From contig MHIM01000004.1 in the NCBI GenBank assembly GCA_001817505.1, forward strand, positions 6,953 to 70,952: a DNA stretch of 64,000 bases, written 5' to 3'. A program made the translations under genes and the position numbers. This document shows, piece by piece, positions 5,243-55,822 of the stretch (positions within the stretch are counted from its first letter, which is position 1; every line of letters starts with the position of its first letter). Source of the stretch: Candidatus Buchananbacteria bacterium RIFCSPLOWO2_01_FULL_39_33. Its GTDB lineage: Bacteria; Patescibacteriota; Patescibacteriia; 2-01-FULL-39-33. A model generated the notes under the pieces. The model did no database searches. It had not been told where the DNA came from and saw only the letters and a list, made by a program, of their open reading frames with translations.

Positions 5243-5527
5243 ATGTTCAACAAACTTAAGCAGATACAAGAATTAAAATCCCAGGCCAACCAAATAAAAA
5301 AAGCCCTTTCAGCAGAAACAGTTGAAGGTTCTGGCGGCTGGGGCAAAATCAAAATAACCATGGACGGTAATCAGGAAATTAAAAAAGTTGAAATAAACGA
5401 TGAGCTTTTAAAAGATAAAGTTAAATTGGAAAGCGCTGTTTTGGAAGCGGCCAATGACGCCATCAAAAAGGTTCAAAGGGTGATGGCGCAGAAAATGTCG
5501 CAGTTTGGCGGTTTGTCTGGATTATAA
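5243..5527 (+). CDS. ybaB: YbaB/EbfC nucleoid-associated protein
   Basis: 94 aa with the typical YbaB pattern (GSGGWGKIKITMDGNQEI...) and a C-terminal MSQFGGLSGL. Confidence 0.85.
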   Translation: MFNKLKQIQELKSQANQIKKALSAETVEGSGGWGKIKITMDGNQEIKKVEINDELLKDKVKLESAVLEAANDAIKKVQRVMAQKMSQFGGLSGL

Positions 5528-5534
5528 AAATGAA

Positions 5535-6165
5535 AAGAGCCCCCACCTACTTATTGTTCGGTGAGGGCTGGACGCCGCCGACGGGTGTTACCCGAAGCGA
5601 CATCGGGCTTTTAGGAAGGAGTGCCGGCAGATGAAAGCCGGGAGCGGGCAGGAGAAGCGAGAAATTCATATCCCGTCCCCTGTATGTTACAGAATCAAGC
5701 GAGCCGATTGCCACTTGTTCATCTGCATGCTTGCAGCAGATCGGTTATGTCCGACGCTCAATTCCTGGCCTACTGGCTTGATACACAGACCAAACCAGAT
5801 TCCCGCCCAGCGAACTGTTCAGCCCGCCGGCACTCCAAGCTCCAAAGGAACTGGCACACTACAGTAGTGTGCCACGACCGCGAAAATTAAAATTTCGCAT
5901 ACCTGGGATTACCTCCCGGTTGGTCGCCGCCACATTAATTACAGATCAGCGGCGAGGACTGCGGTTTCAATAGCCCACCAGAGCAAAGCACCAGGCACCG
6001 GGGCGAGAGGCACCAGGCACTTAAGGAGAGAACTACACATACCCGACTGGATATTTCATCCGCACGGGTACCTCCTTTCTTTTCCCTGTTCAACTTAATA
6101 TGTATGTTCGGAGGTTGATCTTTCGCAACCTCTCTGTGAGACATTATATCACACCCATGTTTTTT
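5535..6165. ncRNA. GC-rich non-coding island, candidate structured RNA of undetermined class
   Basis: About 630 nt, far GC-richer than the flanks and full of local hairpins (e.g. cccgaagcgacatcggg). It carries only Arg-rich junk ORFs in several frames and lies between ybaB and recR. Confidence 0.3.
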
Positions 6166-6229: not shown

Positions 6230-6829
6230 ATGAAATATCCTTTAATAATTCAAAACCTAATAGACCAATTTTCCAAATTACCAAGCGTCGGACCTAAAAG
6301 CGCCGAGCGTTTGGTCTTTCATCTGCTTTATCAGCCGCAAAGTGAGTTGCATGAATTTAGTCACGCTATAGACCATTTGAAAAGCAGCATTAAACAATGC
6401 CGGCTATGTTTTAATTTTTCCGAAAGTGATCCCTGCTACATCTGTAATAACAGCCAAAGGGATAAAACCCTGATCTGTGTGGTCGCTAAACCTCAAGATA
6501 TGGCCATCATAGAAAAAACCGGGTCATTTAACGGTACTTATCATATACTTGGCGGCAATATCAACCCTTTGGAAAACATCTCTCCGCACAATATAAAAAT
6601 AAAAGAACTGCTGTTGAGAATAAAAAACGACAGTATTAAAGAAATTATTTTAGCCCTCAATCCCGATATGAACGGTGAAACCACCTCGCTTTATCTCTTA
6701 AAGCTAATAAAACAATTCCCCAAGATTAAAATTACCCGGTTGGCCAGGGGTTTGCCAATGGGCGCCGATTTGGAATACGCCGATGAAGTGACCTTGGAAA
6801 ACGCGCTTAAAGATAGGAAAGAGTTATAA
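6230..6829 (+). CDS. recR: recombination protein RecR
   Basis: LPSVGPKSAERLVFHLL helix-hairpin-helix, a C4 zinc finger CRLCFNFSESDPCYIC, and a Toprim region. Confidence 0.9.
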   Translation: MKYPLIIQNLIDQFSKLPSVGPKSAERLVFHLLYQPQSELHEFSHAIDHLKSSIKQCRLCFNFSESDPCYICNNSQRDKTLICVVAKPQDMAIIEKTGSFNGTYHILGGNINPLENISPHNIKIKELLLRIKNDSIKEIILALNPDMNGETTSLYLLKLIKQFPKIKITRLARGLPMGADLEYADEVTLENALKDRKEL

Positions 6830-9583: not shown

Positions 9584-10750
9584 TCATAATTTTCCCCGGC
9601 TTATTGCTTGGCGAATTTCCACCATTAAGGTTAAATAAAATTCCAAATTATTCAAAGTTGCCAAGCGCATAGCTAAGGGCTCTTTGGTTTTGAATAAGTG
9701 ATGCAAATAAGCCCGGCTGTATTGTTTTAGGTTAGTGTTATTGATAGGCGTTTTATCACTTCTGAACCTCGCATTAGTGATATTTATAGTAGTATAAAAT
9801 TTTCCTTCCTTTCCCAAAGAAAGACCAGGGAGAAATTGGCCGACTGTCGGCCAACCTCCCCTTAATCCCCTCCTTGGTAAGGAGGGGAAACAATATAACC
9901 GACCATGTCTGGCTTCCCGAGTCGGGATGACACAGTCAAACATATCCACACCGCGTTTGACTGCTTCAATGATATTGGCCGGCGTGCCTACACCCATTAA
10001 ATACCGCGGTTTATCCTTTGGCATGGCTGGAGTTAAATAATCCAAAACTTTATACATTTCTTTGGGACTTTCGCCAACCGCCAAGCCGCCAATAGCATAA
10101 CCGTCCCAGCCAAGCGAAACCAAGTCATTTAAACTCTTTAAGCGCAAATCTTTATATAAACCGCCTTGAATAATTCCAAAAAATAATTGATTTCTTGATT
10201 TATTGTTTTCTGGTTTTCTTGTTTTTTTGATTTCTTGACTAGCTTCCTTGGCCCAAATAGTCGTCAAATCAACCGCTGCTTTAATTTTTGATTTATTTTC
10301 TTTGGAACTCGGACAGACATCTAAAATCATAGCAATATCCGAGCCGATTATTTTTTGTATCTCTAAAACTTTTTTCGGCGTTAAAACATGCTTACTGCCA
10401 TCAATGGGCGAACTAAATTCAACACCATAGGGCATGATCTTTCTAATTTTAGCCAGAGAAAAAACCTGAAAGCCGCCGCTATCGGTTAAAATCGGGCCTG
10501 ACCAGTTCATTAATTTATGCAAACCACCGATCTTTTCTAAAACCTTTAAACCCGGCTGAAGATATAAATGATAAGTGTTAGCCAAGATAATTTCCGCTCC
10601 CAAACCCTTAACTTCATCGGCAGTCAGGTTTTTTACCGCCGCTTTAGTGGCTAGAGGCATAAAAAACGGAGTTGGGATATCTCCGTGCGCCGTTTTTAAA
10701 ATTCCCAAGCGGGCCTGGGATTTTTGGGAAGTTTTTAATAATTTATACAT
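9584..10750 (-). CDS. tgt: queuine tRNA-ribosyltransferase Tgt carrying an in-frame repeat-derived insertion
   Basis: [37 protein letters not shown] and YSRAYLHHL are all present. A 31-aa segment [31 protein letters not shown] is encoded by the palindromic repeat. Confidence 0.85.
   Translation of the reverse strand: [388 protein letters not shown]
9803..9893. repeat. GC-rich modular palindromic repeat (CCCCTCC..GGAGGGG family) inserted in-frame in tgt
   Basis: Contains cccctccttggtaaggagggg and ggccgactgtcggcc palindromes. GC-rich against an AT-rich gene. Shares modules with the copies in uvrA and uvrB. Confidence 0.6.
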
Positions 10751-21070: not shown

Positions 21071-21596
21071 GTTCAAACAAGTTGGATGGTTGCTCTGATG
21101 CCGTCAATTGGCGGAATATCGGAGAGGAAAGTCCGAACACTCTTTGATAATTTATCAATATTTATCAATGTCATGGTAGTGGGTAACGCCCACCGGCTAG
21201 ATTGCAAAATATAGTCAGGACCAGTTCCACAGAGACAATACTAACCAGTACTACGCATTAGAAATCCTAAATCCAAAAATACAAACCCCAAATAAATTAA
21301 TTCAAAAAATAAAAATTGAATTCAAAATTGGGAGTTGGAAATTTGGTGCTTGGAATTTCCACTGCGTGGTAGTGGTAAAAGGTGAAAAGTGTTATGATGT
21401 TTTGGGATTAAGCAAGGGATATCCCCTTAGCCCAAAGCTACATGACTCAACTGTCGGCAACCGGCAGTTTGTGGTAAACTCTACCTGGTGCAACCTCAAA
21501 TATAGTAGAGGGCTGGAGCTTGCCAGCAATGACAAGCCAAGATAGATAACCATCTCCCTAACAGGAACAGAATTCGGCTTACAGGCTTGTTTGAAC
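21071..21596 (+). ncRNA. rnpB: RNase P RNA (bacterial type A) with a large AT-rich internal expansion
   Basis: P4 strands GAGGAAAGTCCGAAC and ACAGAATTCGGCTTACAGGC are present. P1 pairs gttcaaacaag (21071..) with cttgtttgaac (..21596). A GGTAACGCCCACC module is also seen. Confidence 0.8.
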
Positions 21597-21603
21597 AAAA
21601 AAA

Positions 21604-22149: not shown

Positions 22150-22315
22150 AAATGAATTTGACTGCGGTCTAAAGACCGCAGTACCTGCCTGCCGGCAGGC
22201 AGGTCTGGGCAAATTCAGAATGACTGGTAGAGACGGGGCATGCCCCGTCTCTACCGCCGACAATATTTTTTCTCACACTGGCCTTCATCCCCTGGCTTAA
22301 AAGCCAGGGGTATTC
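22150..22315. repeat. intergenic cluster of four perfect GC-rich hairpins (REP-like)
   Basis: ctgcggtctAAAgaccgcag, acctgcctgccggcaggcaggt, ggtagagacggggcatgccccgtctctacc and cccctggcttaaaagccagggg lie consecutively. Confidence 0.6.
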
Positions 22316-40088: not shown

Positions 40089-40529
40089 TTAAAAATCAGC
40101 CAATTCTTGCCAAGACAAAATATTAATTTGCGGATTAATCTGGTCAATATTTAATTTTACTTTTCTAACCGCCTTCCCAGCCTGGCCAGAGGCAATAATC
40201 AGCCGGCTTTCACTACCGGTATTAGCGACCGTAAAAGAGCAGCTGCCTTGAGTTAAAGATAAATTGCCAGAACCAGAAAAATTGATATCATTTCTTACTT
40301 CCTGAAGAGCCTGTTCAGCGCAAGCATTGGCTAAAGATTTGGCTTGAGCTGACTTTTCCAAAGACAGACTGGACTGGCTAGCGCCTAAACCTAATAAAAC
40401 CAAAGAAACTGTTATAGCCAAACCGACGGCACCGACTACTAAAACGCTAAGCAGGGTAACATAACCTTCGGTTTTGATTAATTTTTTATCTAAGCGAAGC
40501 CGAACCATAAAAGGTCTTGGTGTAATCAT
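40089..40529 (-). CDS. hypothetical pilus-associated membrane protein
   Basis: 146 aa, N-terminal TM helix, located inside the pilus operon. Confidence 0.35.
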   Translation of the reverse strand: MITPRPFMVRLRLDKKLIKTEGYVTLLSVLVVGAVGLAITVSLVLLGLGASQSSLSLEKSAQAKSLANACAEQALQEVRNDINFSGSGNLSLTQGSCSFTVANTGSESRLIIASGQAGKAVRKVKLNIDQINPQINILSWQELADF

Positions 40530-41343
40530 ACTCTTTTTTATTCTCCGGATTAATATGCTTTAAGGTAAATGTTATTCTGACAGTGCCGGGGGTATTAGTG
40601 ATAGACAAATTATCAAAATTTAAATTAGAGGATTCTATTCTAGAGGAGGTTAGATTAACCGGTAAATTAGATCCTTCGGCCATTAAAATAGCTGTGCCTG
40701 ACAAGCTAAAAATAGTCGGGCTTAATGAAATATCAGAAACATTCAAAGATAATTGCGAGGCGCTGCTACCGGCCATTGGTGAATTAATAACCTCGGAGTT
40801 GCGAATAGTTTGAGTGATTATATTCATCACCTGCCAACCCTGTTGTTCAACTTCTGAAACAACTTGGTTATCTACCCGCGATTGTAAAATTACCGATAAA
40901 AATATGGAAACAGTTAAAAGCATAGCTGATGACAGACCGATATAAAGCAATAATTCAATTAGGGTAAACCCAGCACCACTTTTATCGTTAACGATAAAAG
41001 TGGTGCTGGGTAAACCCTCAACCTCATTATTTTTTTTATTTTTATCAATATTAATATTAATCAATCCATTTCTCTTTTTTAATTCTCTTATTGCGTTGCC
41101 ATTATATTTTAATCTTTTCTCTCTAACCCTTGCTAATCGTTCTGTTTTATATGATTCATAATAAACTAAAGTCCAAGGCATATAACGCCTTGTTGATTTT
41201 TCTTTTCCACTATTATGTTTGGAAAATCTTCTTTTTAGATCTCCCGTTGAACCGATATATATCTCACTATTCATGTTATTTTTTAATAAATAAACATAAT
41301 ACATATAATTAAAAGTGGTGCTGGGTGAAACCTTTTTTATCAA
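40486..41343 (-). CDS. GIY-YIG nuclease domain (about 81 aa) fused in-frame to a prepilin-like protein
   Basis: YYVYLLKN..EIYIGSTGDLKRRFSKHN...WTLVYYESY is the GIY-YIG fold. No stop intervenes before KSGAGFTLIELLL and the pilin body. The listed start is TTG; the ATG (MYYVY) is at 41304. Confidence 0.5.
   Translation of the reverse strand: MIKKVSPSTTFNYMYYVYLLKNNMNSEIYIGSTGDLKRRFSKHNSGKEKSTRRYMPWTLVYYESYKTERLARVREKRLKYNGNAIRELKKRNGLININIDKNKKNNEVEGLPSTTFIVNDKSGAGFTLIELLLYIGLSSAMLLTVSIFLSVILQSRVDNQVVSEVEQQGWQVMNIITQTIRNSEVINSPMAGSSASQLSLNVSDISLSPTIFSLSGTAILMAEGSNLPVNLTSSRIESSNLNFDNLSITNTPGTVRITFTLKHINPENKKEYDYTKTFYGSASLR
40962..41017. repeat. 56-nt near-perfect palindrome spanning the pilin N-terminal coding region
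   Basis: gggtaaacccagcaccactttt-atcgttaacgat-aaaagtggtgctgggtaaaccc. Related arms lie at 39935..39948 and 40000..40013 (inverted pair) and 41311..41332. Confidence 0.7.
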
Positions 41344-48971: not shown

Positions 48972-50150
48972 TTATTTAACAGGGTTAACAATACTAAATC
49001 TTTTTCTTCTCCTTTGGCAGCTGGCGGCATTGCCGAAACGATGCGCTTCGTCCCGGACTTTTACCAGCATTATTCTTTGCGATTGCGCCAATTCCCTGAC
49101 GGCCTGGCTCATTTTATCAGGGAACACCATTCTATCACCAGCGAATTTAGAAAGACCGATAATCGGAATATTGAGATGGAGATCACGAAAAATTTTACTG
49201 ATATAATCAATTTGCGGTCGTCCGCCGTCAATTAAAATCAAATTAGGCCATGGCCATTCCTGGTGCTTGAATCTCCTTCTGATCATTTCTTCCAAAGCCC
49301 GCAAATCATCATTTTTGGGAGCTTCTTTGATGTTGAATAAGCGGTATTCATCCTTAGCTAACTGGCCATTAATGGCTACCGACATAGCGCCAATCGTTTC
49401 TTGACCGGTCAGATGGGAAATATCATAACCCTCAATCCGGTTTTTGACAGCCCTGGCATCAACTTCATCTTGGGTAATTAAAGTCACATCCTGGATATTT
49501 TTAAGTAGGCCGGCTAATTTCGGATTGTCTTTCTTTAATTTTTTCACTAACCTTTTCTTTTGGCCTTTGAATAATAAAACTATATTTTGGATATTTTCCT
49601 GGTAATCTTTCTGGGTAATTTCGCCAATACAAGTTCCTGGACAAAGCCCGACTTGATAATCAAAGCATGGCCGGCCTGAATTAGGCAGGCAAGTGCTGTA
49701 AGGAAAAACCCGTCGGATAATCCTTAAAGTATTTTTGAGCAAGGTGGCATTCTGATAAGGGCCGAAGATATGCACTTGGTTAGTAGGAAATTTATTCAAT
49801 TCCCGTTCGCGAACAATAATCGGATAAGCATAAGCTTTTTTAGAAATCACCACAAAAATAAAAGACCGCTGGTCTTTGTCTTTGACATTATATTTCGGCC
49901 AATGCTTTTTTATCAGATTGGCTTCCAAAATCACCGCTTCCAAGACAGTATCGGTTTTTTTATGCCTGATGCTTTTAGCCAAAGATACCATTTCAGCTAT
50001 GCGAGAATCAATATCTTTCCTAAAATACTGCAAGACACGTTTTTTCAAGCTGGTCGCCCGGCCAATATAAAGAATCTCGCCCTTTTGGCCGATGAACATA
50101 TAAACACCTGGAGATAATGGTAATTTAACTGCTTTTTCTTTCAAATTCAT
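48972..50150 (-). CDS. uvrC: excinuclease ABC subunit C, short form (GIY-YIG plus RNase H-like endonuclease domains)
   Basis: PGVYMFIGQKGEILYIGRATSLKKRV is GIY-YIG. C-terminal LILIDGGRPQ...IIGLSK...VRDEAHRFG. Only 392 aa; UVR and (HhH)2 regions are not apparent. Confidence 0.7.
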   Translation of the reverse strand: MNLKEKAVKLPLSPGVYMFIGQKGEILYIGRATSLKKRVLQYFRKDIDSRIAEMVSLAKSIRHKKTDTVLEAVILEANLIKKHWPKYNVKDKDQRSFIFVVISKKAYAYPIIVRERELNKFPTNQVHIFGPYQNATLLKNTLRIIRRVFPYSTCLPNSGRPCFDYQVGLCPGTCIGEITQKDYQENIQNIVLLFKGQKKRLVKKLKKDNPKLAGLLKNIQDVTLITQDEVDARAVKNRIEGYDISHLTGQETIGAMSVAINGQLAKDEYRLFNIKEAPKNDDLRALEEMIRRRFKHQEWPWPNLILIDGGRPQIDYISKIFRDLHLNIPIIGLSKFAGDRMVFPDKMSQAVRELAQSQRIMLVKVRDEAHRFGNAASCQRRRKRFSIVNPVK

Positions 50151-50876: not shown

Positions 50877-53624
50877 TTATTTCAAATACTCTTTCAAATA
50901 TTTGCCAGTCACGCTTTTGTCATTATTTATAATTTCTTCCGGCGTGCCTTTAGCCACTAAGTAGCCGCCTCGATCCCCGCCTTCAGGTCCCAAATCAATC
51001 ACATAATCGGCAGCATGGATAATATGCATATTGTGTTCAATCACCGCAATGCTGTTTTGCCTGTCAATTAATTTGTTCAAAACTTTAAGCAGCAGCTCAA
51101 TATCATGGTAATGCAAACCGACTGTGGGCTCATCCAATAAATATAAGGTCTTGCGTCCTAAAGTATGAGTTAATTCTCTGGCTAATTTTATCCTTTGGGC
51201 TTCACCGCCGGAAAGTGTAGTGGCACTCTGGCCTAATTGCAGATAACCCAAACCGACTTCCTGCAAGACCTTCAATTTGTCGGTAATCTGATAATGGCTG
51301 TCAAAATAACCGATGGCTTCATCGATAGTTAAAGCCAGAACTTCGGAAATATTTTTGCCTTTATATTTGACTTGCAAAGTCTCGCGATTGAATCTTTTGC
51401 CGTGGCAGACCTCGCATTCAACTGTGACGGCTGGCAAGAAATGCATTTCTATTAAATTGGAGCCGGCGCCAGCGCAGGCCTCGCAGCGTCCGCCCGGCCG
51501 GTTGAAGGAAAACCGAGAAAGCGTATAACCGCGTTCGCGCGATTCCGGCAACAGCGCAAAGAATTCCCTGACGGGAGTAAAAATACCGGTATAAGTGGCT
51601 GGGTTGGAACGTGGCGTTCGGCCTATGGGCGACTGGTCAACTACCACCACTCGATTAATATATTCCGTGCCTAAAATTTTGGCGACATCTTCCAGTTCTC
51701 TCTTTCTGTAATCCTCTCCTGCCCGAAAAGAGGTGGCACGAAATGCCGAAGAGGTAGGAGCAGCCAAAGGCGGATTAGCTTTTATTTTTTGGACATTCTT
51801 ATATAAGACATCATAAAGCAAAGATGACTTGCCGCTGCCGGAAACGCCAGTCAGGCAAACCATTTTCCTAAGCGGTATATCAACTTGAACATTTTTCAAA
51901 TTATTAGCTCGGGCGCCGATAATCTTAATGGCCTCGCTGGTGGCAGTACGCCGGTGTGAAGCCGTTTCAATTACCCTTTCACCCCTTAAATATTCCAGAG
52001 TTAATGATTTTTGGGGATTATTTTTTTTGAGCAGTTCTTGAGTTTCACCAATAGCCACCACTTGCCCGCCCTGACTGCCGGCCAACGGCCCTAAGTCAAC
52101 AAAAAAATCCGAGGCCCTGATAGTTCTTTCATCATGCTCAACGATAATCACCGAGTTGCCCTGCTCTTTTAAGGATTTTAAAGTTTTAATCAATCTTTCC
52201 GTGTCCCGTTCATGCAAGCCGATTGTCGGCTCATCCAAAACATATAAAGTTTTGGACAAGTGCGAACCGATTTGCGAACCTAATCTTATCCTTTGCGCTT
52301 CGCCGCCCGATAGCGTTTCAGCTTCGCGGCTAAGCGATAAATAATTAAGTCCCACTTGCAATAAAAAATCCAAGCGGTCCGCAATTTCTATGACAACATT
52401 TTCGGCAATGTCTTTTTGTCTCGCGGTCATTTTATTATGGTAAGTAATAAAAAAGTCATAGGCCTGTTCAATAGATATAGCACTGACCTGGGCGATATTT
52501 TTGCCGCTCACTCTGACCGATAATGACTCCGGTCTTAACCTCTGGCCTTCACAAGCCTGACAAAGCTCAACAGCTTTTTCATATTGGTTCCGATACTCGC
52601 CGACTTCCTGGCCTTCTTCAGCCAGTTTCTTTTTATTTTCCCATAATTCCAATTTACCTAAGCCGTGGCATTTTTCGCAGGCGCCATGCGGGCTGTTAAA
52701 AGAAAATAATCTTGGCTCAACTTCCGGAAAAGCGAAACCGTCATGAGGACAAGTCCAATTAGATGAAAGTAGAAATTCTAATGTTATCCCCTCCTTACCA
52801 AGGAGGGGTTTCGGGGTGGTTGCCGAAATTTTTGGCCAACCCTTCCCTGCCTCCCTTTGGTAAGGGGAGGATTTTATTTTCTTCCCCTTAGTAAGGGGAG
52901 AATTATTATTAAATAAAGCAACTACCAAACCATTAGTATAATTAATGGCATTTTCCACCGCTTCCGATAATCTACTTTCATCATTAATCATCACTTTATC
53001 TATAACAATATCAATACTATGTTTGCTGTGTCTGGCTAATTTTACTTTTTCATGAAGAGAATGAAATTTACCATCAATTCTAGCTTCGGAAAATCCCAAA
53101 TTAAGATAATCATAAAGCAACTGGTAATACTCGCCTTTCCGATCAACTACTACCGGAGCTAAAATCGTCACATATTCTTCATTTAATTCTTTGGCCCGGT
53201 TTTTAATGATATCAATCATCTCATCCAGCGCCAGTTTATCAATTTTGCGGCCGCATTTAGGACAATAAACTTCTCCCAGCCGGGCGTATAAAACACGCAG
53301 ATAATCATAAATCTCCGTCAGGGTGCCGACAGTAGAACGCGGATTATGCGAAAGAGCTTTTTGGTCAATGGAAATAGAAGGCGCCAAGCCAATTATTTCA
53401 TCAACATCAGCCGGCTTCATCTGGCCCAAGAATTGTCTGGCGTAAGGCGAGAGTGATTCAATATAACGCCTCTGGCCTTCGGCAAAAATAGTATCATAGG
53501 CCAGCGATGATTTACCGCTGCCGGAAACGCCGGTAAAAACCACCAATTGGTTATGGGGTATGGCCAAGTCAACATTCTTTAAATTGTGCACCCGCGCCCC
53601 GCGGATGGTTATCTGATCTTTCAT
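50877..53624 (-). CDS. uvrA: excinuclease ABC subunit A with an in-frame repeat-derived insertion
   Basis: Two ABC modules (GVSGSGKSSL, LSGGE), the zinc-finger region and EPRLFSFNSP. A 38-aa segment PLTKGKKIKSSPYQREAGKGWPKISATTPKPLLGKEGIT is encoded by the palindromic repeat just before zinc finger 2. Confidence 0.9.
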   Translation of the reverse strand: MKDQITIRGARVHNLKNVDLAIPHNQLVVFTGVSGSGKSSLAYDTIFAEGQRRYIESLSPYARQFLGQMKPADVDEIIGLAPSISIDQKALSHNPRSTVGTLTEIYDYLRVLYARLGEVYCPKCGRKIDKLALDEMIDIIKNRAKELNEEYVTILAPVVVDRKGEYYQLLYDYLNLGFSEARIDGKFHSLHEKVKLARHSKHSIDIVIDKVMINDESRLSEAVENAINYTNGLVVALFNNNSPLTKGKKIKSSPYQREAGKGWPKISATTPKPLLGKEGITLEFLLSSNWTCPHDGFAFPEVEPRLFSFNSPHGACEKCHGLGKLELWENKKKLAEEGQEVGEYRNQYEKAVELCQACEGQRLRPESLSVRVSGKNIAQVSAISIEQAYDFFITYHNKMTARQKDIAENVVIEIADRLDFLLQVGLNYLSLSREAETLSGGEAQRIRLGSQIGSHLSKTLYVLDEPTIGLHERDTERLIKTLKSLKEQGNSVIIVEHDERTIRASDFFVDLGPLAGSQGGQVVAIGETQELLKKNNPQKSLTLEYLRGERVIETASHRRTATSEAIKIIGARANNLKNVQVDIPLRKMVCLTGVSGSGKSSLLYDVLYKNVQKIKANPPLAAPTSSAFRATSFRAGEDYRKRELEDVAKILGTEYINRVVVVDQSPIGRTPRSNPATYTGIFTPVREFFALLPESRERGYTLSRFSFNRPGGRCEACAGAGSNLIEMHFLPAVTVECEVCHGKRFNRETLQVKYKGKNISEVLALTIDEAIGYFDSHYQITDKLKVLQEVGLGYLQLGQSATTLSGGEAQRIKLARELTHTLGRKTLYLLDEPTVGLHYHDIELLLKVLNKLIDRQNSIAVIEHNMHIIHAADYVIDLGPEGGDRGGYLVAKGTPEEIINNDKSVTGKYLKEYLK
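52788..52915. repeat. GC-rich modular palindromic repeat inserted in-frame in uvrA
   Basis: Successive palindromes cccctccttaccaaggagggg, tttcggggtggttgccgaaa, cctccctttggtaaggggagg and tcccctta-gtaagggga. Confidence 0.65.
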
Positions 53625-53763: not shown

Positions 53764-55746
53764 TTAGTTATTTTTCCCAATATCCAATAACTCTTCAATC
53801 TCTTTTTGGATTGTTTTAGGCGTGATTTTGTGCTTCTTGTTATAAACCAACTGCAACTGCCTCCGCCTGTCCACCACTTCCATCGCCCGCTTCATTGAAC
53901 CGGTCTTTTTATCGGCATATAAAATGACTTTGCTTGAGACATTTCTGGCGGCTCGGCCCATGGTCTGGATCAGCGATTCCTCGCTGCGCAAAAAGCCCTC
54001 ACGGTCGGCATCCATAATCGCCACCAGTGTCACTTCCGGCAAATCCAAACCCTCGCGCAGCAGATTAACGCCAACTAAAATATCAAACTGGCCTTCTCTA
54101 AACTCTCGTAAAATTTCCGTCCTTCTGAAAGTTTTGACATCACTATGCAGGTAAGCGGCTTTAAAGCCGTTCTTTTGCAGATAAGAATCCAGGTCTTCGG
54201 CCATTTTTTTAGTTAAGGTGTTAACGATGACTCGGCCGGTTTGAATATCTCCCCTCCTTTCCAAGAAGGGGCTGGGGGTGCCTGCTTGCCGGTAGGCAAG
54301 GTTGACCGAAGATTTCGGCCAACTCCTCTCTATCTCCCCTTGGTAAGGGGAGAATTTTATTTGTTTTCCTTTAGTAAGGGGAAGAAAAACTATTTTTTTC
54401 AACTCTTTGATCAAATCATCAACTTGGCTACGATTAGTTTTCTTGTCGTAAACTGAACGGATTTCAATCGGCGGATCAATTAAACCGGTCGGACGAATAA
54501 CTTGTTCTACCACTTTCTTGGAATGGCTGATTTCCCAAGCGCCGGGAGTAGCCGAAGTAAAAATCGTCTGGCCGATGCGCTTTAAAAATTCCTCAAACTT
54601 CAACGGTCGATTATCCAAAGCGCTGGGCAGTCGCCAGCCATATTTGATTAGGTTCTCTTTTCTGGCTCGATCGCCCTCATACATGCCGCGCACCTGCGGC
54701 AAACCGATATGCGACTCATCCATAATCAAAAGAAAATCTGGCCGGCTTTTTTTATCTTTAGGGAAATATGACAAGAGCGAATCAGGCGCTTCACCGGCCA
54801 ATTTGCCCGTCAGATGCCGGGAATAATTTTCAATGCCATGGCAATAGCCCAAACTCCTTAACATCTCCATATCGTATTTGGTGCGCCTCTCCAATCTTTC
54901 GGCTTCCAGATACAAATTATTTTTGGCAAAAAAATTTAATCTGTCTTTTAATTCAACTTTAATATCTTTGATGGCCCGTTCAATTTCCGGCTTAGTGGAA
55001 ATAAAATGCTTAGGCGGAAAAATAATTATATCTTTCAGGTCTTTAATGATGCGTCTGGTGATTTTATCAACTAGGCCGATATCAGAAACTTTCTGCTCGC
55101 TTAATTCTAACCGGTAAATAACTTCTTCGGCCGCCGGCATAATTTCAAAAACATCGCCCCGCACCCGAAAATGCCCGCGTTTCAACTCGCCTGGCGTTCT
55201 GGCAAATTGCATCTTAACCAATTGAGAAATCAGATCTTTTCTGACAATCGGCTGGCCGATGGATAAATGAAGCGAGGATTCGGTATAGCTGACCGGCAAA
55301 CCCAGGTTATAAATGCAGGAAACTGAAGCCACGATTATGACATCGCGCCTGGTTGAGAGAGCAGTTGTCGCCTGATGGCGCCAGCGGTCAATTTCTTCGT
55401 TGATCATCGCTTCTTTTTCTATATAAGTATCGCTTGATGGCATATAGGCCTCGGGCTGATAATAATCGTAATAAGAAACAAAATAATTAACGCTGTTTTT
55501 GGGGAAAAAATTCTTGTACTCGCGGTAAAGCTGGGCAGCTAAAGCTTTGTTTGGCGCCATTACCAAAACCGGCCGATTGAAATGCTCTATCACTTTGGCC
55601 ATAGTAAAAGTTTTGCCCGAACCGGTAACGCCCAAAAGCGTTTGAAAATCATGATTTTTTTTCAAACTGCCGATTAGCTCTTTGATGGCCTGCGGTTGAT
55701 CGCCGGCTGGAGCAAATTTGGATTTTAATTGGAATATTTTTGTCAT
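53764..55746 (-). CDS. uvrB: excinuclease ABC subunit B with an in-frame repeat-derived insertion
   Basis: FAPAGDQPQAI, GVTGSGKTFT, and helicase motifs through LLREGLDLPEV and GRAARN. A roughly 50-aa segment FLPLTKGKQIKFSPYQGEIERSWPKSS...RRGDIQT is encoded by the repeat. Start set at MTKIFQ to avoid overlapping the tRNA. Confidence 0.9.
   Translation of the reverse strand: MTKIFQLKSKFAPAGDQPQAIKELIGSLKKNHDFQTLLGVTGSGKTFTMAKVIEHFNRPVLVMAPNKALAAQLYREYKNFFPKNSVNYFVSYYDYYQPEAYMPSSDTYIEKEAMINEEIDRWRHQATTALSTRRDVIIVASVSCIYNLGLPVSYTESSLHLSIGQPIVRKDLISQLVKMQFARTPGELKRGHFRVRGDVFEIMPAAEEVIYRLELSEQKVSDIGLVDKITRRIIKDLKDIIIFPPKHFISTKPEIERAIKDIKVELKDRLNFFAKNNLYLEAERLERRTKYDMEMLRSLGYCHGIENYSRHLTGKLAGEAPDSLLSYFPKDKKSRPDFLLIMDESHIGLPQVRGMYEGDRARKENLIKYGWRLPSALDNRPLKFEEFLKRIGQTIFTSATPGAWEISHSKKVVEQVIRPTGLIDPPIEIRSVYDKKTNRSQVDDLIKELKKIVFLPLTKGKQIKFSPYQGEIERSWPKSSVNLAYRQAGTPSPFLERRGDIQTGRVIVNTLTKKMAEDLDSYLQKNGFKAAYLHSDVKTFRRTEILREFREGQFDILVGVNLLREGLDLPEVTLVAIMDADREGFLRSEESLIQTMGRAARNVSSKVILYADKKTGSMKRAMEVVDRRRQLQLVYNKKHKITPKTIQKEIEELLDIGKNN
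54249..54392. repeat. GC-rich modular palindromic repeat inserted in-frame in uvrB
   Basis: cccctcctttccaagaagggg, cttgccggtaggcaag, ctccccttggtaaggggag and ttagtaagggga. Clearly related to the uvrA copy, including the encoded PLTKGK.IK.SPYQ peptide. Confidence 0.65.
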
Positions 55747-55748
55747 AG

Positions 55749-55822
55749 TGGGCATATCCCGATTTGAACGGGAGACCTTTCGGATGTGAACCGAATGCTC
55801 TAACCAGCTGAGCTATATACCC
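55749..55822 (-). tRNA. tRNA-Val (anticodon CAC), no encoded CCA
   Basis: Reverse complement reads gggtatatagctcagctggttagagcattcggttcacatccgaaaggtctcccgttcaaatcgggatatgccca. Cloverleaf with a 7-bp acceptor stem and anticodon loop ttCACat. Confidence 0.8.

Follow-up and report, generated by a model that had tools for sequence, protein, structure and literature searches.

Rickettsia palindromic elements (RPEs; Ogata et al. 2000 Science, 2002 Genome Res) are short palindromic repeats, many copies of which lie in frame within housekeeping genes unrelated to one another, in a small genome densely packed with genes. They are read as selfish DNA that ends up translated (summarised in PMC10969869). 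In-frame palindromic elements have so far been regarded as a peculiarity almost unique to Rickettsia. The REP and MITE families of bacteria are normally restricted to one genus or species. Here, we analysed a stretch of 64 kb (the window) from a metagenome-assembled genome of Candidatus Buchananbacteria, in which tgt carries a palindromic repeat in frame. We consider that this repeat is probably a REP/MITE-like selfish element, present as a translated and near-neutral insertion of the RPE kind in a Tgt lineage whose zinc site had been lost earlier. The gene, the insert and its hairpins are located as follows.

9584..10750, minus strand: tgt (queuine/preQ1 tRNA-ribosyltransferase), 388 aa, reading frame intact.

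9800..9892, minus strand: in-frame insert, one copy of the nested-palindrome element, Tgt residues 287-317 (nhmmer envelope 9781-9904).

9866..9888, minus strand: hairpin H1, TCCCCTCCTTACCAAGGAGGGGA on the sense strand of the gene, in which an SD-like AAGGAGG pairs with an anti-SD-like CCTCCTT.

9827..9862, minus strand: hairpin H2, AGGGGAGGTTGGCCGA-CAG-TCGGCCAATTTCTCCCT, the central palindrome.

9803..9824, minus strand: hairpin H3, a decayed CCTCCCCTTGGNAAGGGGAGG module that reads TCTTTCTTTGGGAAAGGAAGG.

The Pfam TGT profile (PF01702) matches the protein over its full length (residues 12-388, E = 3.7e-135), and phmmer comparison with solved bacterial Tgt structures gave E = 1e-96. Window Tgt and 120/120 homologues have equivalents of the catalytic aspartates D89, D143, and D264 of E. 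coli. The AF2 model (mean pLDDT 91.5) is a (beta/alpha)8 barrel with a subdomain inserted between beta-8 and alpha-8, and Foldseek superposes it on Z. mobilis TGT with TM 0.86-0.90 and rmsd 2.2-2.5 A. The Cys and Val in LDVCPS and GGLAVGE, which we take to be the preQ1-specificity residues, appear to be kept. Profile, catalytic Asp and fold place the protein in the Tgt family, and guanine-34 exchange on tRNA Asp/Asn/His/Tyr is its putative activity.

The phmmer match to solved structures splits into residues 11-287 and 322-388 and leaves the segment between them unaligned, indicating that this segment is an insertion. It comprises 93 nt encoding 31 residues, follows ARHGRLY at its N-terminal side, and has a GC content of 53% within a gene of 40%. 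Two modules match exactly, CCCCTCCTTGGTAAGGAGGGG at 9867-9887 (0 matches expected from window shuffles) and GGCCGACTGTCGGCC at 9838-9852 (0.03 expected). The insert folds into three consecutive hairpins, with an RNA folding energy of -51.3 kcal/mol (z = -4.7) and a DNA fold of z = -5.7, and none of 200 shuffles matched its folding. H1 and H3, each the inverted counterpart of the other, flank the central stem, which in other phyla corresponds to a GGGGAGGTT...ACCCCTCC stem around a variable centre. The arm of H3 is intact in the orthologous copy of the relative L001, where it forms a perfect 18-nt terminal inverted repeat with the left end; these terminal repeats are decayed in the window copy. 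In the AF2 model, pLDDT falls to ~52-57 at residues 288-318, where a disordered loop without modelled contacts connects strands 284-287 and 320-323. The model thus places the insert in a low-confidence surface loop at a beta-hairpin tip, the remaining Tgt fold being predicted with confidence.

Two further copies lie in the uvrA and uvrB genes of the window.

52787..52900, plus strand: second copy, in frame in uvrA (50877..53624, minus strand), antisense to the gene, encoding ...SPLTKGKKIKSSPYQREAGKGWPKISATTPKPLLGKEGI...

54244..54387, plus strand: third copy, in frame in uvrB (53764..55755, minus strand), antisense to the gene, with an extra GCCTGCTTGCCGGTAGGCAAGG hairpin module.

The three copies share one architecture, measure 93-144 nt and contain 3-5 hairpins each, and nhmmer recovered them with E = 3.5e-42 (uvrA), 2e-40 (uvrB), and 1.4e-33 (tgt). 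The exact modules, the unaligned segment and these family copies confirm the in-frame repeat copy that an earlier note had read from the tgt sequence, and the coordinates given there (9803-9893) agree with ours to within 3 nt. Alignment of UvrA to T. maritima UvrA leaves residues 234 to 285 unmatched at the insert, and gaps against solved structures suggest a surface position for the UvrA and UvrB inserts alike. Among UvrB homologues, 114/121 have no insert at this site, and in L123, a relative with 84% identity, the DNA shows it cleanly empty.

More than 10 bacterial phyla have both the hairpin CCCCTCCTT-N-CCAAG-R-AGGGG and the three-stem layout, and the copies there apparently are mostly intergenic. 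At least 120 genome stretches, representing many phyla, contain H1 (chance expectation ~2-8 by our base-composition estimate), and the three-stem layout was found in Poribacteria, Nitrospinota, Nitrospirota, Planctomycetota, Deltaproteobacteria, Acidobacteriota, and the candidate phyla radiation (CPR). Two inverted CCCCTCC-loop-GGAGGGG hairpins surround a GGGGAGGTT...AACCCCTCC stem whose centre varies, and RNAalifold recovered each of the three stems, 9 of the 22 pairs showing compensatory changes. Copies in Hymenobacter are near-perfect palindromes of ~125 nt with terminal inverted repeats of ~38 nt. Location differs between the two groups of genomes: 6/10 copies at CPR loci are embedded in ORFs, compared with 7/55 at loci outside the CPR whose GC is below 50% (Fisher p = 0.003), where the other 48 are not embedded in this way. 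The hairpin falls within a Pfam match in 6 of the 8 CPR host ORFs scanned (MgsA, beta-CASP hydrolase, MnmA, U32 peptidase, PfkB, and the C-terminal edge of PRAI), and an in-frame copy was also found in an M50 protease of other CPR genomes. A permissive Rfam search with the tgt, uvrA, and uvrB copies returned just sub-threshold chance matches, and a scan of the whole window at gathering thresholds detected only RNase P RNA and two tRNAs. BLAST of the uvrA copy against phage and plasmid collections gave no match. Literature searches for the hairpin sequence, and for in-frame palindromic or MITE insertions in CPR/Patescibacteria, returned nothing relevant.

Four states were observed at the same tgt codon in the DNA of relatives. 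The site is empty in L126 (MFE -6 kcal/mol), carries the element in the window arrangement in L001, carries the same family in a different arrangement in L125, and holds an unrelated palindrome in the syntenic L002. The tgt loop is therefore a recurrent permissive site, and the comparison indicates that the window insert is derived. The earlier note had considered that the segment might be conserved protein sequence in relatives lacking the palindromes; it is not, the loop of L126 being short and palindrome-free. Among the 120 nearest Tgt clusters, the loop is enlarged in 35 (~30%) and short (<=21 residues) in 85, for example in the 360-aa P0014.

The window copies (3/3) preserve the frame and are free of stops, and the same holds for the copies in L125, L001, and other CPR genes, which suggests that the insert is translated by read-through. 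Only 2-4 of the 6 frames are open per copy, not clearly above shuffles, so frame compatibility reflects survivorship and not element design; an "ORF-neutral design" was rejected on this count. Downstream of the insert, tgt codons are under purifying selection (pN 0.149, pS 0.77).

We propose that the element is a small non-autonomous nested-palindrome repeat of the REP/REPIN or MITE type, which would have entered tgt at the DNA level in the beta-hairpin-tip loop where the former Zn subdomain begins. The copy would have survived because its length is a multiple of three, its landing frame is stop-free and the loop tolerates extra residues. The ribosome would then read through it, yielding a Tgt whose fold and catalytic centre are normal apart from a disordered surface loop of 31 residues. 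The element itself would be selfish or near-neutral, with no adaptation of the enzyme. Persisting copies in the gene-dense Candidatus Buchananbacteria genome would be found largely in permissive loops of the essential Tgt, UvrA, and UvrB, and in larger genomes the same family appears to lie mostly between genes. The loss of the Cys3His site is a separate, older event, common to nearly all close Patescibacteria Tgts.

The agent that moves the element was sought in several places. A Pfam scan of 47 window ORFs detected no transposase and no RAYT-type domain. ORFs bracketed by copies in other phyla (a small sample per genome) encode TsaD, thiolase, an ABC ATPase and similar common housekeeping proteins, and one DUF559 endonuclease, with no transposase among them. 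Neither in the window nor between paired copies elsewhere was there an autonomous insertion sequence with the same ends that could be the parent of a MITE. As a separate observation, the only nuclease-like extras in the window are a GIY-YIG protein (40486-41343) and RNase H. No target-site duplication was recognisable in 25 element flanks or in the comparison of filled and empty uvrB sites, with boundaries uncertain by a few nucleotides, so a transposition-like spread is deduced from the distribution of copies only. Near-identity across phyla is unusual for REP or MITE repeats and could instead be explained by a conserved function, and site targeting, not survivorship only, might explain why the same loops are occupied repeatedly. 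A bolder proposal, which we hold tentatively and think somewhat doubtful, is that H1 (CCCCTCCTT-loop-AAGGAGGGG), the GGGGAGGTT...ACCCCTCC stem and H3 (CCTCCCC-loop-GGGGAGG) form a cosmopolitan constrained module whose stems mimic an SD/anti-SD duplex, and which either spreads among more than 10 phyla or persists independently in them by an undescribed mechanism. In Patescibacteria, it may then be, with a few other palindromic families, a major recurrent source of lineage-specific insertions that hit the same permissive loops repeatedly.

Selection might instead keep the insert for a function, either as a new interaction surface of Tgt, UvrA, and UvrB or as an mRNA or DNA hairpin acting in translational pausing for co-translational folding, as an internal SD/anti-SD decoy, or as a protein-binding site. 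Several observations fit such a role. Across phyla, compensatory changes preserve the stems; the perfect SD of H1 (AAGGAGG) is paired with CCTCCTTA, which resembles the 16S 3' tail; one intergenic relative overlaps the SD region of an enolase gene; and an orthologue of 76% identity has kept the insert. Synonymous divergence is also lower in the insert (pS 0.30, over only 31 codons) than in its flanks (0.49-0.77). This low value hints that the palindromes are maintained or are homogenised by gene conversion, and hence that the insert is not strictly neutral. However, the encoded peptide is not constant among copies, as their frame and orientation vary; the model shows it as disordered, and it evolves faster in amino acids than the rest of the protein (dN/dS ~0.57 vs 0.18). 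Most relatives lack the insert, and the same loop takes unrelated elements. Orientation to the gene is not fixed (sense in tgt, antisense in uvrA and uvrB), which speaks against a strand-specific RNA function. We therefore regard a selected function as unlikely, and near-neutral selfish DNA as the better account.

The former zinc site lies in the same part of Tgt. In the canonical enzyme, a Zn-coordinating insertion organises the dimer interface (bioRxiv 10.1101/2020.09.01.277731). The corresponding positions in the window are given below.

9722..9751, minus strand: lost CxCxxC site, Tgt residues 334-343, 4-residue deletion, no Cys.

9650..9652, minus strand: N367 codon, where other Tgts have the fourth Zn ligand (E. 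coli H333, Z. mobilis H349).

All four ligands of E. coli Tgt (C302, C304, C307, and H333) are absent: C302 and C304 fall in the 4-residue gap, C307 corresponds to L341, and H333 corresponds to N367. The alignment thus upholds the loss of CxCxxC noticed earlier and extends it to the fourth ligand His. Window Tgt contains three cysteines only (146, 273, and 287) and none beyond residue 287. This Cys/His inventory rules out a shifted Zn site, the possibility that the earlier note had set against its own reading. The Cys ligands are missing in 118 of the 120 nearest homologues, with short and enlarged loops alike, and the His position is Asn in 109/120 and His in 5/120. Loss of zinc is therefore older than the insertion and independent of it, and window Tgt belongs to a Zn-less sublineage of the family rather than lying outside it. 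In a broader set, the full CCCH pattern is lacking in ~35/143 full-length representatives (CCCH present in 108/150). The former Zn subdomain is modelled without metal at pLDDT 94-97, so that a different structural solution replacing the Zn site is plausible on the model; close Patescibacteria Tgts appear to hold the subdomain together without metal, a Zn independence that we infer. A literature search for Zn-less Tgt in Patescibacteria returned nothing relevant.

The link between insertion and zinc loss suggested by the earlier note did not survive this comparison. In principle, the insert could compensate for the missing Zn site, or could have been tolerated only after remodelling of the subdomain. 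Both features do lie in one subdomain, between beta-8 and alpha-8 (bioRxiv 10.1101/2020.09.01.277731), and every insert-bearing Tgt seen here is Zn-less. However, 85 of the 120 homologues are short-looped in this Zn-less group, so compensation is unnecessary, and its strong form is already contradicted by these insert-free proteins. The one close homologue that keeps the Zn site, P0095, has a loop of ordinary length, although a single case proves nothing. The insert makes no contacts in the model, and the same element sits in UvrA and UvrB with metal sites unaltered at the insertion points. A causal link is accordingly very improbable, and two separate events remain the preferred reading.

The segment might also be absent from the mature protein, through programmed ribosomal bypassing or mRNA excision. 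Precedents for bypassing are the GC-rich "byp" hairpin elements of Magnusiomyces mitochondrial genes and T4 gene 60. In favour of this reading, the tgt insert is a GC-rich hairpin cluster of -51 kcal/mol (RNA) in an AT-rich gene, with identical TAT (Tyr) codons on both flanks. Yet neither bypassing nor splicing needs an open frame, and every copy listed above keeps one; the window and L001 inserts differ by an in-frame deletion of exactly 3 nt, and the flanking Tyr are conserved family residues, not special take-off and landing codons. We give this explanation hardly any weight. Least credible of all is an artefact, by chimeric assembly or chance survival of a tgt pseudogene: the window does come from a metagenome-assembled genome, and a Candidatus Buchananbacteria RIFCSPHIGHO2 MAG encodes a UvrB 100% identical to the one here, but the same insert is found in P0001, a 388-aa Tgt that is 99% identical, an orthologous, diverged insert is present in the independent sample ERZ4903055, the identical insert-bearing UvrB is recorded on 9 contigs from several sources, and tgt shows a full-length Pfam match, conserved catalytic residues and purifying selection downstream of the insert.

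A translated selfish insertion would make this locus a second, independent case of selfish DNA within protein-coding genes, in a free-standing CPR lineage. With several element families and the same loops involved, insertion tolerance and protein-loop evolution become comparable across lineages. For annotation, such elements would account for many unexplained insertions in Patescibacteria proteins, and the peptide motifs PSLxRRG, PLLxKEG, and ...ATKQS...FARND should be flagged as repeat-derived, not functional. For mobile elements, the family poses the question of a hairpin module of ~100 nt present in many phyla with no mobiliser known. For Tgt enzymology, the absence from a whole lineage of the structural Zn site, a family hallmark according to the literature, offers a natural test of the purpose of that site, for example in the dimer interface or in subdomain stability.

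Compared with canonical bacterial Tgt (E. coli, Z. mobilis; PDB 1q2r, 1ozm), window Tgt shares the family, the fold and the catalytic aspartates. It differs in lacking all four structural Zn ligands (Cys3His), with the 4-residue deletion, in being ~20 residues shorter at the C-terminus, and in its extra element-derived loop of 31 residues. Zinc-independent ("C-minus"/low-zinc) paralogues of Zn proteins, such as QueD2 in the same pathway, are likewise members without the canonical site in families whose standard members require Zn (PMC9894224). In contrast to QueD2-type proteins, which are regulated backup paralogues (PMC9894224), the Zn-less, putatively Zn-independent Tgt appears to be the sole form seen in its lineage.

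Among repeats, bacterial MITEs (ERIC, Correia/NEMIS, BOX, and cyanobacterial MITEs; review PMC10969869) resemble the window element in small size, terminal inverted repeats, absence of coding capacity and occasional in-frame fusion to ORFs. The window family differs in having no identified target-site duplication or parent insertion sequence, and each end of the element is itself a hairpin. REP/REPIN repeats, mobilised by RAYT (TnpA-REP), share with the window family imperfect palindromes of 20-35 nt, inverted doublets that fold into a longer hairpin, a mostly intergenic position between operon genes in larger genomes, and compensatory changes that keep the stems. Unlike them, the family has no RAYT gene in the window or adjoining its copies and no conserved GTAG/CTAC-type flanking tetranucleotide, save CTAG in Hymenobacter. 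REP/REPIN repeats are extragenic, whereas 3/3 window copies and 6/10 copies at other CPR loci are intragenic, and their families are normally species- or genus-specific, whereas the window family is near-identical across phyla.

The closest likeness is to the RPEs. As with the RPE kind of element (~100-150 bp), a palindromic repeat lies in frame in several unrelated conserved genes, and for Tgt the AF2 model has a surface insert with an intact fold; RPEs too land in surface loops, compatible with the fold of the host protein. As a rule, each RPE family encodes a conserved peptide. Window-element copies, in contrast, are read in different frames and orientations and yield no single conserved peptide. 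The element is also shorter (~90-145 nt) and modular, made of strings of hairpins; its host belongs to another phylum, and its sequence looks unrelated. RPEs are confined to Rickettsia, whereas the window family occurs in many phyla, and here several unrelated element families strike one loop in related lineages. By analogy, we regard the window element as probably the same kind of phenomenon as the RPEs, without claiming membership of any RPE family.

The tgt gene of the window carries a nested palindrome in frame, and its 31-residue peptide lies after ARHGRLY as the earlier note had described, with coordinates differing by at most 3 nt.

The tgt gene and its insert
9584..10750, minus strand: tgt ORF, 388 aa, matching Pfam TGT over its full length (E = 3.7e-135)
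9800-9892, minus strand: in-frame insert, Tgt residues 287-317, 31-residue peptide after ARHGRLY

Both DNA modules described there were found, exact CCCCTCCTTGGTAAGGAGGGG at 9867-9887 and GGCCGACTGTCGGCC at 9838-9852, with 0 and 0.03 matches, respectively, expected from dinucleotide shuffles of the window. Solved Tgt structures match residues 11-287 and 322-388 separately and leave the segment between them unaligned; compared with the E. coli and Z. mobilis enzymes, it is therefore an insertion. The insert forms a series of three hairpins when folded as a single strand (RNA, -51.3 kcal/mol, z = -4.7; DNA, z = -5.7), and none of 200 shuffles folded equally well. Its GC content is 53%, compared with 40% for the gene. 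Elsewhere in tgt, a plus-strand T-rich tract with a period of 8 nt (10180-10235, residues ~173-190) encodes a 14-residue low-complexity loop in a variable region of the protein.

Two further occurrences of the left hairpin (H1), an exact one at 52788-52808 and one at 54251-54271 that has two mismatches, fall within long minus-strand ORFs encoding UvrA (915 aa) and UvrB (663 aa), respectively. Alignment of the three copies revealed one common architecture.

Architecture of the element, from the three-copy alignment
Left hairpin (H1): CCCCTCCTT-NCC-AAGGAGGGG
Central palindrome (H2): around TTGGCCGA...TCGGCCAA
Right hairpin (H3): CCTCCC-TTGGTAA-GGGGAGG, inverted counterpart of the left hairpin
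Optional part: extra hairpins

Searching the window with this alignment (nhmmer) recovered all three, with E-values from 1e-33 to 1e-42, and no further convincing copy. Relative to the host gene, the tgt copy is oriented opposite to the uvrA and uvrB copies, and the reading frame differs between the three, so that the peptides are FPSLPRRG..., ...PLLGKEG, and ...SPFLERRG. All 3 preserve the frame and are free of stops. Since only 2-4 of the 6 frames are open in each copy, not more than in shuffled sequence, selection acting on the host genes is the best explanation of this state.

Several other features of the window were observed. A second lineage-specific UvrA insertion, KANPPLAAPTSSAFRATSFRAGEDYRKRELEDV (51690-51790, residues ~612-646), is matched by alignment gaps in T. 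maritima UvrA, falls on a GC-rich island, and may derive from another repeat family. Four GC-rich hairpins form an intergenic string at 22160-22310. Of these, ACCTGCCTGCCGGCAGGCAGGT is found again between genes at 61461-61484 and, in diverged form, as an extra module of the uvrB insert (54280-54303), a recurrence that points to a second hairpin family recombining with the first. The intergenic hairpin CCCCTCCTGATCAGGGGAGG (63440-63475) directly precedes the start codon of the enolase gene (62180..63427, minus strand), with its G-rich arm, on the enolase strand, at the expected Shine-Dalgarno position. Between ybaB (5243-5527) and recR (6230-6829), ~600 non-coding nucleotides of 60-65% GC (5530-6130) stand in a gene-dense genome of 40% GC; this stretch showed no convincing ORF, no Rfam match, and no conservation in the syntenic relative L002 by blastn, and could be an undescribed structured RNA. 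The class A RNase P RNA (21074-21597) measures 524 nt against a model of 367 positions and has an AT-rich insertion at ~21240-21350. UvrC (48972-50150) comprises only 392 aa, with GIY-YIG and RNase H-like endonuclease domains, and Pfam detects no HhH region at its C-terminus; another GIY-YIG protein, of 285 aa, is encoded separately at 40486-41343.

The zinc-coordinating subdomain of Tgt is inserted between β8 and α8 and helps to organise the dimer interface, with the ligands C302, C304, and C307 in E. coli corresponding to C318, C320, and C323 in Z. mobilis (bioRxiv 10.1101/2020.09.01.277731). The window Tgt has cysteines at positions 146, 273, and 287 only. In the alignment to E. coli positions, a deletion of 4 residues takes in C302 and C304, L341 stands at C307, and N367 stands at H333, the histidine that is the fourth ligand (H349 in Z. 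mobilis). The loss of CxCxxC proposed in the earlier note was thus confirmed, and its suggested link to the insertion was not supported: of the 120 homologues nearest to the window Tgt, 118 lack the ligands whatever their loop length, which shows that the loss is real, old, lineage-wide, and unrelated to the insertion. The homologue P0095 keeps CDCYTC and the histidine; another, P0099, keeps the spacing with the cysteines gone and looks like an intermediate. All 120 retain the three catalytic aspartates. Among 150 more distant 50%-identity Tgt representatives (P0121-P0270), 108 carry the full CCCH pattern; about 35 of the 143 full-length ones lack it and show diverse replacements (SFLN, SCAA, T-LH, and others), suggesting that the zinc site was probably lost several times in Tgt. 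The former zinc subdomain is modelled confidently by AlphaFold2 without metal (pLDDT 94-97). A different structural solution in its place, which the note had also raised, would be plausible. The clade-wide loss merits follow-up.

The AlphaFold2 model of the whole protein (116-sequence alignment; mean pLDDT 91.5, pTM 0.90) superimposes on Z. mobilis Tgt with a TM-score of 0.86-0.90. Residues 288-318, with pLDDT ~52-57 and no secondary structure, lie where a β-hairpin has its tip and link strand 284-287 to strand 320-323. The gene was also compared with that of a close relative, L001.

Divergence of tgt, window versus L001
Upstream of the insert: dN/dS ~0.18
Downstream of the insert: pN 0.149, pS 0.77 (saturated)
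Inside the insert, only 31 codons: dN/dS ~0.57, pS 0.30 (unusually low)

These ratios indicate that tgt is still kept under purifying selection. Over the 31 codons of the insert, the peptide appears relaxed, and some constraint may act on the nucleotides.

Patescibacteria (Candidatus Buchananbacteria, Falkowbacteria, Komeilibacteria, and similar) account for all of the nearest Tgt homologues, and the window UvrB has a 100% identical counterpart in a Candidatus Buchananbacteria RIFCSPHIGHO2_01_FULL_40 MAG. DNA of four relatives revealed four states at the same tgt codon.

States of the tgt site in relatives
L126, Tgt 74% identical: short loop TRNAKRITHNGKGSF, without palindrome, MFE -6
L001, Tgt 76% identical, independent sample: same element, with an in-frame 3-nt deletion and perfect 18-nt terminal inverted repeats
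L125, Tgt 69% identical, syntenic: same hairpin type in a different nested arrangement
L002, Tgt 74% identical, syntenic Buchananbacteria: unrelated long palindrome GTCATTGCGAG...CTCGCAATGAC, encoding SLRGSRKATKQSRRLLRFARND

The loop at this site is enlarged (at least 24 residues versus 11-21) in 35 of the 120 nearest Tgt clusters, many of which show recognisable repeat-derived peptide motifs. The UvrB insert is absent in 114 of 121 homologues, and four different insert types occur among the rest. The relative L123 (UvrB 84% identical) has a clean empty site, ...ATAGTT joined directly to AAAAACGGC..., and L124 (83% identical) a related, rearranged copy. The four states in tgt and the same behaviour in UvrB argue that both loops are recurrent landing or survival sites and that the inserts are derived. 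The palindrome in the Tgt loop of L002, noted at L002:10001-11131 and in many Tgt and UvrB homologues, gives peptides such as ...ARSGATKQS...LPRFARND and ...SLAMT; judged by peptide motif, at least 17 of the 120 nearest Tgt clusters contain it, and it is present at the UvrB site as well.

In a scan of GTDB species, each represented by one genome, at least 120 stretches matched CCCCTCCTTNCCAAGRAGGGG, compared with ~2-8 expected by chance (our own estimate from base composition). The matches listed include Poribacteria, Nitrospinota, Nitrospirota, Planctomycetota, Acidobacteriota, Dehalococcoidia, Thiomargarita, Hymenobacter, Bacteroidota, deltaproteobacterial groups, and several lineages of the candidate phyla radiation (CPR). 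The scan did not demand anything beyond CCCCTCCTTNCCAAGRAGGGG, and many matches share the full layout of H1, GGGGAGGTT, a variable centre, ACCCCTCC, and H3; in more than 10 bacterial phyla (L003-L122), the copies are near-identical for the 21-nt hairpin as well as for the complete three-stem element. The three stems were all recovered by RNAalifold from 16 copies of 12 lineages, and 9 of 22 pairs show compensatory changes. Thiomargarita copies form tandem arrays with a 41-nt period, and Hymenobacter copies are ~125-nt near-perfect palindromes.

Eight of 10 CPR copies lie within ORFs of at least 200 aa. The hairpin falls within a Pfam match in 6 of these 8 host ORFs (MgsA, beta-CASP, MnmA, U32, PfkB, and the edge of PRAI); one of the remaining copies is N-terminal of an M50 protease domain, and the other is in an ORF without a Pfam match. 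Embedded copies number 6/10 in CPR versus 7/55 in non-CPR loci with GC <50% (Fisher p = 0.003), and 5 of those 7 belong to one Thiomargarita tandem array. With so few embedded copies, and with ordinary housekeeping genes bracketed by copies in non-CPR loci, the family behaves like REP elements between genes in larger genomes. No mobilising gene was identified among ORFs bracketed by copies in the loci sampled, no Rfam family covers the element, and the uvrA copy has no phage or plasmid match. The literature searched contained no report on the element or on in-frame palindromes in CPR. The conservation of the three-hairpin module across phyla merits follow-up.

Taken together, we consider it quite likely that a REP/MITE-like nested palindrome entered a permissive Tgt loop after the lineage had lost its zinc site, where it would persist as a translated, near-neutral loop. 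The earlier interpretation stands for the in-frame repeat and falls for the connection with zinc loss, the ligands being gone regardless of loop length. The inverted hairpin-bearing ends, and the perfect terminal inverted repeats of some copies, resemble those of REPINs and MITEs. No target-site duplication, parent IS, or TnpA-REP transposase (RAYT) was found in the window and the limited sequence of the loci sampled from other genomes, so we only infer mobilisation. The closest known phenomenon is that of the Rickettsia palindromic elements (RPEs), selfish palindromes found in frame in many housekeeping genes at fold-compatible positions (review PMC10969869). By analogy, the element in tgt, uvrA, and uvrB would be an RPE-like protein-coding palindrome. 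The likeness is one of kind, and we do not claim membership of an RPE family; the element differs in host and structure, and its copies are read in different frames.
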